In this document: positions 26,840-33,167 of the stretch, piece by piece
Numbering within the stretch: position 1 is the first letter of the stretch
Layout: every line of letters begins with the position of its first letter
Assembly (NCBI GenBank): GCA_963794155.1
Contig: CAWCCX010000006.1
Span: 2,187 to 66,186 of the forward strand
Length of the DNA stretch: 64,000 nucleotides
Origin: an uncultured Alphaproteobacteria bacterium
Lineage (GTDB): Bacteria; Pseudomonadota; Alphaproteobacteria; Rhizobiales; Beijerinckiaceae
Direction of reading: 5' to 3'
Position numbers and translations under genes: made by a program
The notes under the pieces: generated by a model
Told to the model about the DNA's origin: nothing
Seen by the model: only the letters and a program-made list of their open reading frames with translations
Database searches by the model: none

Positions 26840-27835
26840 ATGGATTTGACGACACGGTACATGGGCCTTGACCTAAAGAACCCTCTAGTCGCGTCCGCCT
26901 CGCCGCTTAACGCTGACCTCGGCAACCTAAAACGCCTCGAGGACGTCGGGACCGCGGCCGTGGTGCTTCCCTCTCTCTTCGAAGAGCAGATCGAGGCCGA
27001 GACTGCACGTTACGACCATCTGACCGGCGTGAACGCCGAAAGTTCGCCTGAAGCGCAGAGCTATTTTCCTGCACCGGCCGACTACAAGGTTGGCCCGCAG
27101 CAATATCTCGACCTTGTTCGCCGCGCGAGCGGCTCGCTCGACATTCCAGTCATCGCCAGCCTAAACGGCACGACCGACCATGGCTGGATTTCCTACGCCA
27201 AGTCGATCGAGGAAGCCGGCGCCGCTGGACTGGAGCTCAATGTCTACTTCATCCCCGCTAACCTTTCGATGACCGGTTACGACGTCGAGCAACGCTATCT
27301 AGACATCCTGAAATCGGTGCGGGCCATGGTCTCAATTCCGGTCGCGGTCAAACTCAGCCCTTATTTCAGCGCGGTCGGCAGCATGGCGCTGGCCCTCGAA
27401 CGGGCCGGCGCCGACGCCCTCGTGCTGTTCAATCGATTCTACGAGCCTGATCTCGACATCGCGCGCTTGCAGGTGCTGACCGACCTCAAGCTCAGCCAGC
27501 CGAACGAAATTCGCTTGCCATTGCTTTGGCTCGCCGTTCTCTCCGGCCGCGTAAAAGCCTCTCTCGCCGCTACGACGGGAGTCTCGTCTGCCGACGAGGT
27601 CGTGAAATACCTCCTTGTCGGGGCCGACGTCGTGATGACCACCTCGGCCCTTCTGCGTCACGGGGTGGACCACATGGCAGTCTTGATCGCAGGACTGGCA
27701 TCCTGGCTGCGATCGCGGGAGTTTGCTTCGGTCAATCAGATGCGCGGAATCATGAGTCAGGAGAGGATGCAGGATCCCCAAGCCTTCGAACGCGCCAACT
27801 ATATCAAGATCCTGCAGGGATATGTCGGCGGCTAG
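26840..27835 (+). CDS. Dihydroorotate-dehydrogenase-like FMN protein
   Basis: KNPLVASASPL, PSLFEEQI, PVIASLNG, PVAVKLSPY, LFNRFY. The active-site loop reads ELNVYFIP, without the DHOD S-C-P-N motif. Confidence 0.85.
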   Translation: MDLTTRYMGLDLKNPLVASASPLNADLGNLKRLEDVGTAAVVLPSLFEEQIEAETARYDHLTGVNAESSPEAQSYFPAPADYKVGPQQYLDLVRRASGSLDIPVIASLNGTTDHGWISYAKSIEEAGAAGLELNVYFIPANLSMTGYDVEQRYLDILKSVRAMVSIPVAVKLSPYFSAVGSMALALERAGADALVLFNRFYEPDLDIARLQVLTDLKLSQPNEIRLPLLWLAVLSGRVKASLAATTGVSSADEVVKYLLVGADVVMTTSALLRHGVDHMAVLIAGLASWLRSREFASVNQMRGIMSQERMQDPQAFERANYIKILQGYVGG

Positions 27836-27974
27836 TGGATCGAACCTAACATTTGAGTCTGGATGGGATTTTTGAACGAAGCCGCTACCGCGGCGCGCAC
27901 ATCGAGATTTTGTGAGGGTCTCCTGCCTGAGAGGATGTGGATGTTGAAGCCCATCCCTCAGACAGGAGTAGCCG

Positions 27975-28834
27975 ATGGCCCAGTTGAGCCCTCTTCGCCG
28001 CCGCATGATCGAGGACATGACCGTCCGTAACATGTCGCCGGCGACGCAGCGATCCTACGTCAGCGCGGTTTCGAAGTTCAGCCGGTATTTTGGCAAGTCG
28101 CCCGAGCAGCTGGATCTGGAAGACGTTCGCGCTTTTCAGGTCCATCTCGTCTCGACGGGCATCTCATGGCCGGTCTCAACCAGATCGTCTGCGCCTTACG
28201 CTTCTTCTACGGCATCACGCTCGGCGAGGCGAACGTTCCCGAGCGTATCCCCTATGCGCGCGAGCCGCGCAAACTGCCGGTTGTGTTGAGCGCCGACGAG
28301 GTGGTGCTGTTTCTGGAGTTCGTCTCGAGCCTGAAGAGCCGGGCGGCGTTGACCACGGCCTATGCGGCCGGGCTCAGGGCCTCGGAGGTCGCGGGGCTGA
28401 GAGTGGCGGACATCGACAGCACGCGGGGCGTGATCCTGGTCCGTCATGGCAAAGGCGCGAAAGATCGCAACGTGATGCTGTCTACGCAATTGCTCGGCAT
28501 TTTGCGCGCCTATTGGAGGCTCGCCCGGCCAACGATCTATCTCTTTCCCGGACGGGATGAAGAGCATCCGATTGATCCGACGGTGTTGCACGCTGCGTGC
28601 CGATCGGCGGTCAATGCCGCCGGGTTGACCAAGCGGGTCACGTTGCACACGTTGCGCCATAGCTTCGCGACGCATCTCTTGGAAAGCGGAACGGACATCC
28701 GGATCATTCAGGTTCTGCTCGGTCATAACAATCTGTCGTCGACGGCGCGCTACACGCAAGTCGCGACCCACACGATCCGGGCGACGCAGAGTCCGCTCGA
28801 TCGATTGTCGTTGGAGGTCATGCCGCCGGGATAG
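27975..28834 (+). CDS. Tyrosine recombinase/integrase with N-terminal SAM-like domain, -1 frameshift near 28170
   Basis: MAQLSPLRRRMIEDM N-domain; catalytic set GLRASE, HGKGAK, HTLRH, LGH, RYT intact. Confidence 0.9.
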
Positions 28835-28855
28835 ACGGGCGCTCCGGCGCTGGCA

Positions 28856-30088
28856 ATGGCACGCGCCGGAGCTTCCTTCGACCGACCGACAATCGAAGTC
28901 GCGGATATTCTGCGTCGCCATGGCGAGGCCTATCTTCGCGATCACGTCGGACATGTAGGGCGGACCGAGCAGCGCGTGATGAGCGCGATCGCGGCGTGCC
29001 GAACGGCGGCGCTCGGCGGCCATGTCGAAGCCTGCGACGATTGTGGCGCGACGCGCATCGCTTACAACTCGTGCCGCAATCGGCACTGCCCGAAGTGCCA
29101 AGGAGCGGCGCGGGCGCAATGGCTAGCCCACCGGCAGGCCGAACTGTTGCCGGTTCCCTATTTCCACCTCGTGTTCACGCTGCCCGCGCCGATCGCGGCT
29201 GTCGCCTTCCAGAATAAGAGCGCCGTCTATGCGATGCTGTTCAAGACCGCCATTGAGGCCGTGACCACGCTGGCCGCCAATCACCGCAGGCTCGGAGCGC
29301 GGATCGGCGGCCTGGCCATCCTGCACACTTGGGGGCAGGCGCTGACGCACCACCCTCACATCCATTGCGTCGTCCCCGGCGGCGGACTTTCCATCGACGG
29401 CTCCCGATGGATCGAGGCGCGCTCGAGCTTCTTTCTGGCCGTCAAGCCGCTCGCCCGGCTGTTCCGTCGCCTGTTCCTCGAACGCCTGCAAGCCGCCTTC
29501 GACGCGAAGGGCCTCGGATTCTTCGGTGATCTCGCCTATCTCGCCGATCGCGCCGCCTTCGCCGCACAGCTGGCTGCGGTGCGTCGCCTCGATTGGATCG
29601 TCTACGCCAAGAAGCCCCTTGGCGGACCCGCGCGAGTTCTCGCCTATCTCGGCCGCTACACCCATCGCGTCGCCATCGCCAACAGCCGCATCCAAGCCTG
29701 CGACGACGAACATGTCAGATTGACCTGGAAGGACTATCGCGAGGACGGCGCCGTAAAGACCATGAATTTGAAGCCCGACGAGTTCATCCGGCGCTTCCTG
29801 CTCCACGCCTTGCCCGACGGCTTCCATCGCATTCGTCACTTTGGATTCCTCGCCAATGGCCATCGAACCGAAAGGCTGGCCCTCTGTCGCTCGCTCCTGG
29901 CAAGCCAGGTCGAGCCGACAGCGCACGGAAAGGAAGAACCGGCCTCGCCCGAACCGGACAACAGTAACGGCGTCGATCCTCCGCCCTGTCCGGATTGCGG
30001 CGGGCCGATGAGGTTCGTCGCCGACCTTCCTCGTAGCGGCGAACGGCCTCGGTCCAAGACGTCGTCGTTTTGGTGCGATACTTCATGA
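28856..30088 (+). CDS. IS91-family (Y2 HUH) rolling-circle transposase
   Basis: CRTAALGG, CDDCG, SCRNRHCPKCQ zinc domain, HTWG..HPHIH HUH motif, YLGRY tyrosine pair, RIRHFGFLAN. Confidence 0.93.
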   Translation: MARAGASFDRPTIEVADILRRHGEAYLRDHVGHVGRTEQRVMSAIAACRTAALGGHVEACDDCGATRIAYNSCRNRHCPKCQGAARAQWLAHRQAELLPVPYFHLVFTLPAPIAAVAFQNKSAVYAMLFKTAIEAVTTLAANHRRLGARIGGLAILHTWGQALTHHPHIHCVVPGGGLSIDGSRWIEARSSFFLAVKPLARLFRRLFLERLQAAFDAKGLGFFGDLAYLADRAAFAAQLAAVRRLDWIVYAKKPLGGPARVLAYLGRYTHRVAIANSRIQACDDEHVRLTWKDYREDGAVKTMNLKPDEFIRRFLLHALPDGFHRIRHFGFLANGHRTERLALCRSLLASQVEPTAHGKEEPASPEPDNSNGVDPPPCPDCGGPMRFVADLPRSGERPRSKTSSFWCDTS

Positions 30089-30470
30089 GCGCCGCTGTGA
30101 CGATCCCGCCCACAATCACGGTTCGCGCCCTTTCCGTCACGCCAACAATCGGAGGCGGTCGAAACAACTTGAGCCCTCCCGAAGTCGCAGCGCTCATCAG
30201 ACGCTACTGGCGCGCACTTCCAGCCCATGCAAGCCCCGTTTCGCTGTCGGCCGCTCGCCAAACCCATCATGTTCGCCGCGCGTCGCAAGCCGAAGCGACG
30301 AAAGCGCGCTCGCGCCTTACACAAAGCCCATAGCGCCGCCAGCCAACCTCCCCGCGACTTCGTTCAATCCGGCTTCAATGAGGTAAGCTACCCTATGCTC
30401 GCAATGTTGCGCCGCGGACCTCACAGAAGCCTCTAATTCCCGACGCGGGCTCGCCGTGCGAATCTGCGCG

Positions 30471-31390
30471 ATGCGCGCTGGAAGATTGCTCTCCGTCTCG
30501 TCCGCCGATATTCGTCGGCTCAAAACCCTGGTTCAAGACCGCAACACGCCGCAGAAGCACGTCTGGCGGGCTGAAATCGTGCTGTTGACCGCCGGTGGCG
30601 TTGGCACAAATGCGATTATGTGGCGCACGGCCAAGTCGAAGACCTGCGTTTGGTGCTGGCAGGAGCGCTTTATCGAGGAGGGATTCGACGGACTGCTGCG
30701 CGCGTCCTGATGGCGAAGGCGGCCGGGCTCAGCGTCAGTTCGGTTCAACGCATCTGGCGCGCCCATGGTCCGCAATCGCACCGGACGCGCCAGTTCAAGC
30801 TGTCCAACGACCCGCGCTTCGTCGACATATTACGCGACGTCGTCGGACTCTATGTCGATCCGCCCGCACACGCCATCGTCCTGTCGGTCGACGAAAAGAG
30901 CCAGATTCAGGCGCTTGACCGCACCCAGCCCGGACTGCCGCTGGGGCGCGCCGGAACCATGACGCACGACTATGAGCTGCACGGCACGACGACGCTGTTC
31001 GCCGCGATGAATATCCTCGACGGCACGGTGATCGGCCGCAACATGCAGCGCCATCGCCATCAAGAGTTCATCCGTTTCCTCAATGTCGTCGAGAAACAGG
31101 TTCCCGTGGGAAAGACGATCCACGCGATCGTCGACAACTACGCCGCCCATAAGCATCCCAATGTTCGACAATGGCTCGAACGTCATCCGCGATGGACGTT
31201 CCACTTCACGCCGACATCCGCTTCCTGGCTCAACGCGGTCGAGGGCTTCTTCGCGACCCTCACCAAGCGGAGGCTCAAGCGTGGCGTCTTTCGCTCGGTC
31301 GCCGACCTACAAGCCGCAATCAACCGTTTCCTCGACGAGCACAATCAGCAATCCAGGCCCTTCACTTGGACCGCCGACCAGATCCACTAG
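30471..31390 (+). pseudogene. IS630 transposase remnant with internal deletions
   Basis: RAEIVLLTA..GTNAI HTH part, then a frame break, VDEKSQIQALDR, IVDNYAAHK, SASWLNAVE. C-terminus collapsed to WTADQIH*. Confidence 0.85.
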
Positions 31391-32436
31391 TTCTAGTGTG
31401 TCACGAACTAGCCCCGATTACATTGGCGGGACGAGTCCGTCCTTGCCGAACAGAACCGCGCCGGCATGTATGGAGCCGTCCGCCTGGCGCTGGCCCGGCA
31501 CAAATACCGCTTGGCCGACCTGAATGTCCGCGGCGCTCGACGGCACTAGCGCGACGACCGGCACATTCGCGGGAATGTCGATCTTCTTCTCGCCGCCCTT
31601 GTAGGTCAGCGTTACGGTTTGGCCGTCGACGGCCTTGACCGCGTTGGAGACGGTTGCGTTGGTCATCATGCTGGAGCCCGGCAGATCCCAGGGATAATGG
31701 CCCTCGGCTGTCCCCCTCATGTTATCCGGAAATACGACAACTTCCACTGATCGCAACGTGGAATCGGGCTGAGTGGCCGTCGCGGTGCCGATGAACGTGC
31801 CTTGTTTGATATCCGCCATCGACGCCTTGACGACCGCGATCGCGCCAAACTTGTCGGCTAACGTGATCGCCACGTCCTTGCCGTCCTTGGCATGGACGAC
31901 AAGTTTCGTGCCCTCGAGGCTTGCGACCGTGCCTCGCACCCGCGCCGGTTCGCCGTCCGCGCGGGCCGGTCCACTACTCAATGCGATCGGAACCAGAATA
32001 GCGGCGACAACGGGCGCAAGACGCCCGAAGCCATACTTCGGCTGCATCATTAGTTTCCTCCCATGTTTACGAGCTTCCAACGCAAGTCCGAGGCTCGCGC
32101 CAATTCCCGCTGACCACTTCGGACCGACGCTCGGGCGGCGTCCGCTGACACTTCGTCGGCTTTCGGCTTCCCGTGAAAGGCACTCAGATCGGGCGCAACC
32201 AGCTTTAACCGACATTCCATATAAACGGCGGAACCGGAGTTAGTCTGCCCCTGTTACCCCGATCTGACAAGCTCATGCTGTCGCCTCGGCCGCCGCCAAC
32301 AGGCGCCGTCGCTCCGACCCGAACGGCATATCGAAAACTCGATCGCGACAATCCGCCGTGTTGCCAAGCCTTCCCACCTCGACCACCTATGCGACCACCC
32401 CTACCGAGGATCGTCGTGACACAGTAGAACTAGTGG
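31384..32436. repeat. 23-bp near-perfect inverted repeat pair bracketing a 1.05-kb segment
   Basis: CCACTAGTTCTAGTGTGTCACGA (31384-31406) and TCGTGACACAGTAGAACTAGTGG (32414-32436) are 22/23 complementary. Confidence 0.85.
31418..32050 (-). CDS. Secreted hypothetical protein with two OB-fold-like repeats (DUF5666-like)
   Basis: GGAGG RBS, signal peptide ending ...PARA/DG, RVRGTVASLEG, GTAEGHYPWDL, TMTNATV-like segment, GGEKKIDIP. Confidence 0.75.
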   Translation of the reverse strand: MMQPKYGFGRLAPVVAAILVPIALSSGPARADGEPARVRGTVASLEGTKLVVHAKDGKDVAITLADKFGAIAVVKASMADIKQGTFIGTATATQPDSTLRSVEVVVFPDNMRGTAEGHYPWDLPGSSMMTNATVSNAVKAVDGQTVTLTYKGGEKKIDIPANVPVVALVPSSAADIQVGQAVFVPGQRQADGSIHAGAVLFGKDGLVPPM

Positions 32437-32541
32437 TCAAAGTCTGTCACTTGAGTCCCGCAGGGGGAAACCACACGGCCAGAACCACATTGGCCCAAGG
32501 TCTGTTGCCGGGCCGGAGGCCAAGGGCGCGAGCGCGAGCCG

Positions 32542-32871
32542 TTGTGTACATTGGTGAGGCGCCTATTCGCGGACCAGCGCTACGGCGTCGGGACCGGCCG
32601 GGAATCGCAGTATGGCCATCACGCGATTGCGGTGTTCCGGGTCGGACGGCCGGCGATGGACATGACGCGACGGCTGATGAACACGGTGATCACGACCTAT
32701 GGACGCGACGTGGCGACGGCCAACACGGAATTCCAGCGTGTCGGCGCCACGATGTCGGGCCGGCAGAGCCATGTCTGGCTACGCACCGACCAAGGTTGGC
32801 GAATTACAGCCGCGCATGTCAGTCTCCTGCCACCGGCGCCGGTTGCGCAGCCGACGTCCATGTCGAGGTAG
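32542..32871 (+). pseudogene. AtzH-like / HpxZ (oxalurate catabolism) protein fragment, N-terminus missing
   Basis: YGHHAIAVFR, NTVITTYGRDVATANTEF, GRQSHVWLRTDQGWRITAAHVS. Confidence 0.75.
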
Positions 32872-32951
32872 AGACTGCGAGCAGCGGTGGCCCGGCTCGA
32901 CTTGATTGCACTCATTCACCACACCCGTCGGGGAACGACCGCTTTTTGCGG

Positions 32952-33167
32952 ATAGTGTTGAAAAACTCGAATTTCCGCATCGATCACAATTCAGGAGACC
33001 GCTGGCGGCCTCGGTGAAAAATTCCTTAGGGGGTCGGCGGACCGACCGGGTTTGCCGCGTGCGACGCTCCTATATGCCCTGCCGTGAGGAGTATCGGCTG
33101 AGTTGACGCGACGCCCGCGAAAACGAGATTTTAGCGGTGGCTCAATTTCCGAGTTTTTCAACACTAT
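32952..33167. mobile_element. MITE-like non-autonomous element (about 216 bp)
   Basis: Perfect 18-bp terminal inverted repeats ATAGTGTTGAAAAACTCG (32952-69) / CGAGTTTTTCAACACTAT (33150-67); no credible internal gene. Confidence 0.75.

Follow-up and report, generated by a model that had tools for sequence, protein, structure and literature searches.

What is a segment of about 1 kb, carrying a single intact gene between the arms of an inverted repeat, doing among decayed insertion sequences? The question is raised by a locus in a 64,000-nucleotide stretch of DNA (the "window") from an uncultured alphaproteobacterium (GenBank assembly GCA_963794155.1, contig CAWCCX010000006.1, positions 2,187 to 66,186), a host with 64% G+C whose nearest named relatives are Bradyrhizobium, Roseiarcus and metagenome-assembled genomes (MAGs) of Xanthobacteraceae. 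An earlier note on this DNA had offered three readings: a non-autonomous gene-carrying transposon with IS630-like ends and TA junctions, an invertible phase-variation segment served by a nearby tyrosine recombinase, or two IS630 copies inserted at one site. We conclude, with a probability of roughly 0.55, that the segment at 31391-32429 is a non-autonomous element resembling a mobile insertion cassette (MIC), that it derives from an insertion sequence (IS) of the IS701 family, and that it is now stranded.

The inverted repeat itself is not a product of chance. A repeat search returned arms of 23 nt at 31384-31406 and 32414-32436 with one mismatch (96% complementary) and a spacing of 1007 nt, and none of 300 shuffles of 31200-32640 yielded a 23-mer inverted pair with one mismatch or fewer. 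The 22/23-bp repeat of the earlier note is thus borne out, and its inner 17-nt repeat (16/17) and the palindrome CCACTAGTGG that removal of the segment would leave are both as it described them. The boundaries have to be redrawn, however: the note had placed a TA on either side of GTTC...GAAC, whereas the natural limits are a 4-bp CTAG on either side of TTCTAG...GTAGAA, which makes the cassette 1039 bp long (31391-32429). Read in the IS701 register, with a slash for each junction, the window has CTAG / TTCTAGTGTGTCACGA ... TCGTGACACAGTAGAA / CTAG, and the core of the two terminal repeats is TTCTACTGWGTCAC. The left direct repeat CTAG lies at 31387-31390 and has its TA in common with the junction of an adjoining IS630 copy. 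It is followed on the plus strand by the left terminal inverted repeat TTCTAGTGTGTCACGA (31391-31406), recognized by the repeat search and by comparison with IS ends, and then by an A, an inner CTAG (31408-31411) and, 6 nt further, the stop codon of the gene. The right terminal repeat TCGTGACACAGTAGAA (32414-32429) lies within an IS remnant and matches the right-end repeat of full IS701-family copies at 16 of 16 positions. The right direct repeat CTAG (32430-32433) precedes TGGTCAAAG, and a same-genus contig, G140:C16, reads ...CTCAA / CTAG / TGGTCAAAG, an unoccupied version of the target. That CTAG stands on both sides of the cassette agrees with the length of the duplication made by the parent IS, which counts for little, CTAG being also the obligatory target.

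The parent element was identified by a search of same-genus genomes, in which the last ~130 nt of the segment (32301-32433) matched a multi-copy element in several congeners. Its full copies, of which there are multiple in same-genus genomes, measure 1.49-1.54 kb (1489-1541 bp), begin with TTCTACTGAGTCAC... and end with ...GTGACACAGTAGAA. Their 468-aa open reading frame (ORF) encodes an IS701-family transposase (NF033540, 432 bits against a cutoff of 150; PF13546, 278 bits, E = 9e-83). Each of ten full copies, drawn from four genomes, stands between perfect direct repeats of 4 bp, which are CTAG in six cases and TTAG in four. Elements of the IS701 family are 1400-1550 bp long, duplicate exactly 4 bp of target and have ends of the consensus ---YACT-Y--YR (De Palmenaer et al. 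2008, PMC2266710), and the full copies agree with this description in length, in their 4-bp duplication and in their ends, which read TTCTACTGTGTCAC. Alignment with five full congener copies delimits the 3' remnant in the window at 32301-32429 on the plus strand. It represents the last ~178 nt of the IS less deletions of 43 bp and 5 bp, is nearest to the variant in genome G018, and keeps the C-terminus of the transposase (...IVVTQ*, the last ~43 codons); no DDE domain is present in 31391-32429. These alignments identify the arms of the cassette as terminal repeats of an IS from the IS701 family.

This identification decides the first reading of the earlier note in part. The kind of element it proposed, a non-autonomous gene-carrying transposon, agrees with the occurrence of the module with different flanks (below), but the IS630 family and the TA junctions give way to IS701 ends and a 4-bp YTAG duplication. 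An IS630-derived non-autonomous element was rejected: IS630 ends begin GTGGATCGAAC..., as against TTCTAC... in the cassette, and the register gives a duplication of 4 bp, not 2 bp. Nor does the segment belong to other familiar classes of compound element. A composite transposon has two complete IS copies, and here the IS sequence that is left amounts to 16 nt and ~130 nt; a miniature inverted-repeat transposable element (MITE) is non-coding and shorter than ~0.5 kb, and here there are 1039 bp with an intact gene under selection.

The passenger gene occupies 31418-32050 on the minus strand (stop codon at 31418-31420) and is predicted to encode a secreted protein of 210 aa. Its likely start is at 32050, behind the ribosome-binding site in GGGAGGAAACTA-ATG, and its N-terminus resembles a signal peptide, in agreement with the earlier claim that the repeats enclose one intact secreted-protein gene. 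The label "DUF5666-like" that the note had attached to it is weak: the window protein scores E = 0.016, below cutoff, and three of 26 homologues reach E <= 0.01. The ratio of non-synonymous to synonymous substitution rates between contexts is 0.17-0.21, at synonymous divergences of 0.08-0.10, indicating purifying selection. An AlphaFold2 model (pLDDT 77, pTM 0.70) predicts two small beta-barrels, for which Foldseek gave no PDB match at E <= 0.001. The protein has no known function, so no physiological consequence of its capture follows immediately. Homologues are widespread in Hyphomicrobiales and Burkholderiales, in many genomes as ordinary chromosomal genes; in a plasmid collection only distant homologues occur, annotated "hypothetical protein". 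The closest chromosomal homologues, in Roseiarcus MAGs, have ~80% nucleotide identity and have part of the leader in common with the window, and the repeat is absent from them. This leader (32051-32300, minus strand), which is weakly conserved upstream of these homologues and is the gene's own, contained no Rfam family and no sigma-70 consensus in our scans.

Evidence that the gene has moved comes from metagenomes. A scan of metagenome contigs with one exact pattern, the left junction (repeat, CTAG and gene end), gave four contigs, and further ones were added by exact-protein look-ups. At least four contexts other than the locus of the window (context C: the window, L135 and L136) contain the gene together with its leader and the 17-nt left arm, at an identity of 95-97%. 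The arm is followed by TTAG/GAGGCC... in context A (L131) and by CTAG/GCAGCC... in context A2 (L137, L139-141, L132 and L134), which has the same 3.9 kb upstream as A. Context A3 (L143) diverges 42 nt upstream of the leader. Context B (L133 and six further contigs) lies in a GST neighbourhood; there the arm is followed by CCAG and a terminator-like hairpin, and an inverted second end is found upstream, consisting of CTAG, a repeat whose 10-nt tip is present in three tandem copies, and 57 nt of unmatched origin. In every context homology breaks off exactly at the repeat tip, the next four letters being TTAG, CTAG or CCAG, indicating that the end of the left arm is a mobile boundary. In every metagenome copy the gene is accompanied by the 17-mer of the left arm, whose sixth position is C. 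The phylogeny of the three lineages is an unresolved star, with 3 versus 2 shared derived sites. The check that the earlier note had proposed, a search of other genomes for the cassette with different flanks, thus gave a positive answer in metagenomes for the gene and left-arm module, favouring mobility. Measured against what is asked of a MIC that has moved, the count for the gene with its left end is at least four contexts besides that of the window, of which one is two-ended; for the exact two-ended form of the window it is one.

Two peculiarities of these contexts are recorded here. The 10-nt tip that is tripled in context B (L133, 1596-1629) reads TTCTACTGTG; its tandem copies point to slippage or to faulty repair of a transposon end. 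On either side of the gene module of context A2 stands one of two sequences, N and N', that are 79% similar and each start right after a CTAG (L131/L137 3429-3612, L132 237-373); N' passes into an ORF of 353 aa and a fragment of IstB.

The cassette model that we favour draws on what the ends are, on the 4-bp YTAG that the parent IS duplicates, on the lack of a transposase inside the segment and on the recurrence of the gene with its left end in several contexts. It is supported further by the inverted second end of context B, by the vacant right target in G140:C16 and by the purifying selection on the passenger gene. It would work as follows. Two inverted IS701-family terminal repeats bracket the passenger gene and its leader in place of a transposase gene; an IS701-family DDE transposase, supplied in trans, would bind both ends and excise the unit; and the excised unit would enter a YTAG tetranucleotide, whose 4 bp would be duplicated. 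The two-ended unit would then have reached the window by one transposition event and would be mobilisable in trans. No cognate transposase was found in the genome, so the cassette is probably stranded at present.

Several observations weigh against this model. The left arm is only 16 nt long, and both arms are of the right-end type: the left one agrees with the right-end repeat at 15 of 16 positions and with the left-end repeat at 12-13 of 16. In the 97%-complete genome there is neither a full copy nor a partial match of the cognate IS, and the repeat does not occur elsewhere. The complete two-ended form is confined to a single context, L135 and L136 representing the same locus. Between the second arm of the window and that of context B there is no significant homology beyond 18 nt, and the homology of the latter to the IS701-family IS is likewise not significant. 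In the type-A contexts no second end lies within 3.9 kb, where the contigs all stop at another IS630 copy. Empty sites were not found either: no orthologous flank for context B came to light in 129 same-genus genomes, and for contexts B and C no empty allele was detected, exact-protein look-ups of the neighbours in B giving occupied loci only. In the window, an empty site would join the left flank, ...GATCCACTAG, straight to TGGTCAAAG; an exact search of the contigs of species genomes for the left junction gave no match. Finally, the leader meets the IS remnant at a 5-6-nt microhomology (CGCCT / AGGCG, ~32296-32305; the arm-leader junction reads CCGCCGCCAACAGGCGCCGTCGCTCC), which is the signature of an illegitimate joint and not of one made by a transposase.

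These points lend themselves to a different history, in which the two-ended unit never moved and the gene simply lies between two independent IS relics. The gene, with a solo 17-nt end, would have been near the site already; a separate full IS701-family copy would have entered the CTAG before TGGTCAAAG; and a deletion from inside that IS (~position 1340) to the leader would have left two inverted ends by accident. Besides the microhomology joint and the single two-ended context, this account can point to the left arm, which has a CTAG on both of its sides (31387-31390 and 31408-31411), like a collapsed separate insertion. Deletions and nested elements are abundant in the region. Moreover, the IS701 element, the IS630 elements and the relic flank are all centred on CTAG, so that matching CTAGs on the two sides are no proof of a single insertion and the flanks are uninformative. 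Yet this history still has to assume prior mobility of the gene and end module, which is seen in at least four other contexts, and it needs no fewer events than the cassette model. It also leaves a coincidence that independent deletions are unlikely to produce, namely that the second inverted ends of contexts B and C lie within ~6 nt of the same position in the leader. We regard it as the most serious alternative, though a less likely one than the cassette model.

The distribution of boundaries among the contexts raises another possibility, that of one-ended capture, in which the gene with a single right-type IS end is mobilised again and again by pairing with whatever second or surrogate end lies upstream. 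Downstream, the boundary is fixed at the repeat tip, and L131 and L137, which have 3.9 kb in common upstream, differ right after it; upstream, the boundary varies (N, the N tail, a 57-nt arm, a 114-nt IS arm). However, no mechanism of this sort is known for IS701-family elements, and the gene has no transposase linked to it. The variable flanks may stem from later insertions at adjacent CTAGs, like that of IS630 in the window, and on such short contigs a second end may lie beyond the contig limits. We consider one-ended capture improbable. A related proposal, that the gene and a single 16-17-nt right end form a self-standing "capture module" re-mobilised by pairing with any second copy of the end, strikes us as doubtful; were it true, IS701-family elements would capture genes and spread them by an undescribed route in which no linked transposase is needed.

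The genome has IS701-family elements of its own (C4 and C14), whose transposase proteins are 37-43% identical and whose ends are different. Cross-mobilisation by them is doubtful, their ends, CACTACTTTG, matching the cassette at ~7 of 10 tip positions. A scan of the congeners with the end pattern, designed to reveal other non-autonomous derivatives of the IS, gave essentially only pairs ~1.5 kb apart. One full copy in a congener (G018:C29; L026, 3762-3800) has in its flank ATGTAATCGGG and ~23 nt that resemble the 3' end of the passenger-gene family, with a score that was reached by 3 of 1000 shuffles. This flank may be the relic of an independent insertion beside a member of the passenger family.

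The second reading of the earlier note, a phase-variation segment flipped by a tyrosine recombinase, has some appeal at first sight, for the inverted repeat does enclose a gene and the region upstream of it, and 2.6 kb away lies a gene for a tyrosine recombinase. That gene, the only recombinase nearby, belongs to an IS91-family element (27872-30440, plus strand) that also encodes a Y2 transposase (Pfam Phage_integrase, Y2_Tnp and Zn_Tnp_IS91; NF033538). There are ~14 near-identical copies of the element, and both of its ends recur at 98-100% identity on ~13 other contigs, so that its recombinase cannot be regarded as dedicated to the cassette. The arms belong to the IS701 family, as does the target duplication, and the segment has the same orientation in the window, L135 and L136, which are three independent assemblies. 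Because the leader lies inside the segment, inversion would not switch the gene. The reading is very hard to sustain.

The third reading, two IS630 copies at one site, holds on the left and fails on the right. The left outer flank is, by sequence, the true right terminus of a decayed IS630-family copy, designated IS630#1 (27835-31387, plus strand; NF033545 IS630 transposase, 178 bits; DDE_3). It is bordered by TA at 27833-27834 and 31388-31389, and the CTAG that it targeted on the left overlaps with the stop codon of a DHOD-like gene. Intact relatives in congeners start TA / GTGGATCGAAC and end ...AAATTCGATCCAC / TA / G. IS630#1 itself has suffered a ~107-bp deletion near 30703, a ~55-bp deletion just inside its right end and the insertion of the IS91-family element, which is nested in it and is unrelated to the cassette.

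On the right, a conserved sequence of ~180 nt (32434-32613, plus strand) resembles IS630 left ends over its first ~45 nt, with scores that are reached by 2 of 500 shuffles when the C8 copy is used for comparison and by 38 of 500 when IS630#1 is used. The region 32430-32613 is retained at 77-88% in the congeners G071, G140 (two copies) and G089, beside an SDR gene and without a transposase, which rules against a second IS630 copy, and that candidate was rejected. An exact search of the contigs of species genomes for the IS630-like right flank gave no match. To judge from the alignments, the right flank is at most an old solo-end relic or a mere resemblance to IS630. Thus, of the claim that both outer parts of the repeat resemble IS630 ends, the left half is confirmed by a genuine terminus, and the right half reduces to the ~45 similar nucleotides of a conserved sequence.

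Homology to the right-flank locus of the congeners stops at ~32613, in the region of a 5'-truncated HpxZ/AtzH-like gene fragment (32566-32871, plus strand; positions 34-122 of the 122 in profile NF033625; PF11533). In G071:C12 (L244, 1454-2322) a 45%-identical paralogue of the passenger adjoins the 180-nt sequence in the same relative orientation as in the window; no passenger paralogue stands beside that sequence in G140:C16 or G140:C37. Further to the right, a MITE of ~213 bp (32951-33163) with perfect 18-bp terminal repeats has ~50 copies in the genome. The same-strain ENA contig L135 (99.7-99.8% identical) lacks it, and the alignments there abut with a 9-nt overlap, indicating that the MITE moved recently. 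To the left, the DHOD-like gene with its PFOR neighbourhood has a 95%-identical second copy in the same genome (G000 C13:355774-356310, compared with 27300-27835 of the window), and in G024 it likewise occurs in two copies.

Why unrelated elements should meet end to end at this locus can be understood from their target. CTAG occurs here at 0.14 times the frequency expected from base composition, and each insertion regenerates it, so that CTAG-specific elements pile up at one spot. IS630 elements target the TA within CTAG, according to Tenzen & Ohtsubo (1991) as cited in PMC2170065, and the IS630 terminus abuts the cassette because both target the same CTAG. Since the junctions have this CTAG in common, the order in which the cassette and IS630 arrived cannot be read from them. 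A preference for the same under-represented tetranucleotide thus stacks unrelated elements end to end, yielding palindromes and "cassettes" that may pass for recombinase switches.

Congener G031 provides further cases of such neighbours. In G031:C17 (L030) a different element of the IS701 family, with the end CTAGCACTACTTTG and of the type of C4/C14, sits in the CTAG at the stop codon of the DHOD-like gene; this CTAG is a recurrent insertion hot spot. In G031:C25 (L039, ~position 140) two IS630 copies stand head to tail with one TA between them, ...ATCCAC TA GTGGATCG... (ATCCAC-TA-GTGGATC), and the 10-bp palindrome at this junction is identical to the one that would arise in the window if the cassette were removed. 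Several IS701-family copies in G031 (L025, L147-L150) adjoin one and the same flank, YTAG / CAGGCTGCTG..., which also follows the IS630 end in G031:C25; this suggests another repeated element with a preferred YTAG target.

How does the cassette compare with known systems? Relative to an IS701-family insertion sequence, it has ends that fit ---YACT-Y--YR, a 4-bp duplication and a remnant of the transposase C-terminus running into its right end. It differs in having lost ~1340 bp, including nearly all of the transposase gene, and in carrying a host gene instead, so that it is not autonomous. With the targeting of IS630 it has in common that the adjoining true IS630 copy has its TA in the same CTAG; its ends, TTCTAC..., are unrelated to the IS630 ends, GTGGATCGAA..., and it is not an IS630 derivative. 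In transposition units of the ISEcp1 type, one IS end is fixed and the second end varies, and an intact IS with its transposase is carried along. The module described here may be likened to them in its fixed boundary at one IS end and its variable upstream boundaries, but the gene is linked only to a 16-17-nt end.

The closest parallel is the mobile insertion cassette as ISfinder uses the term, whose prototype, MIC231 of Bacillus cereus, was reportedly described by Chen and colleagues in 1999 (a work in the reference list of PMC2266710) as a derivative of IS231 (IS4 family). In a limited literature search we found no earlier report of such a cassette in the IS701 family. Like a MIC, the cassette has IS-type terminal inverted repeats that bracket a passenger gene unrelated to transposition, lacks a transposase, is flanked by the direct repeat typical of its parent IS and is presumed to be mobilised in trans. 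It departs from MIC231 in its parent family, IS701 with a 4-bp YTAG duplication and not IS231, and from MICs generally in that both ends are of the right-end type, one of them only 16 nt long, and in that the complete cassette occurs in a single context and the gene with one end in several, mobilisation in trans being presumed by analogy. If the cassette model is right, the locus is a clear natural example of how nothing more than transposon ends can enclose a host gene and its promoter region and transfer both between replicons of alphaproteobacteria in soil and peat, and it would extend the concept of the mobile insertion cassette to the IS701 family.

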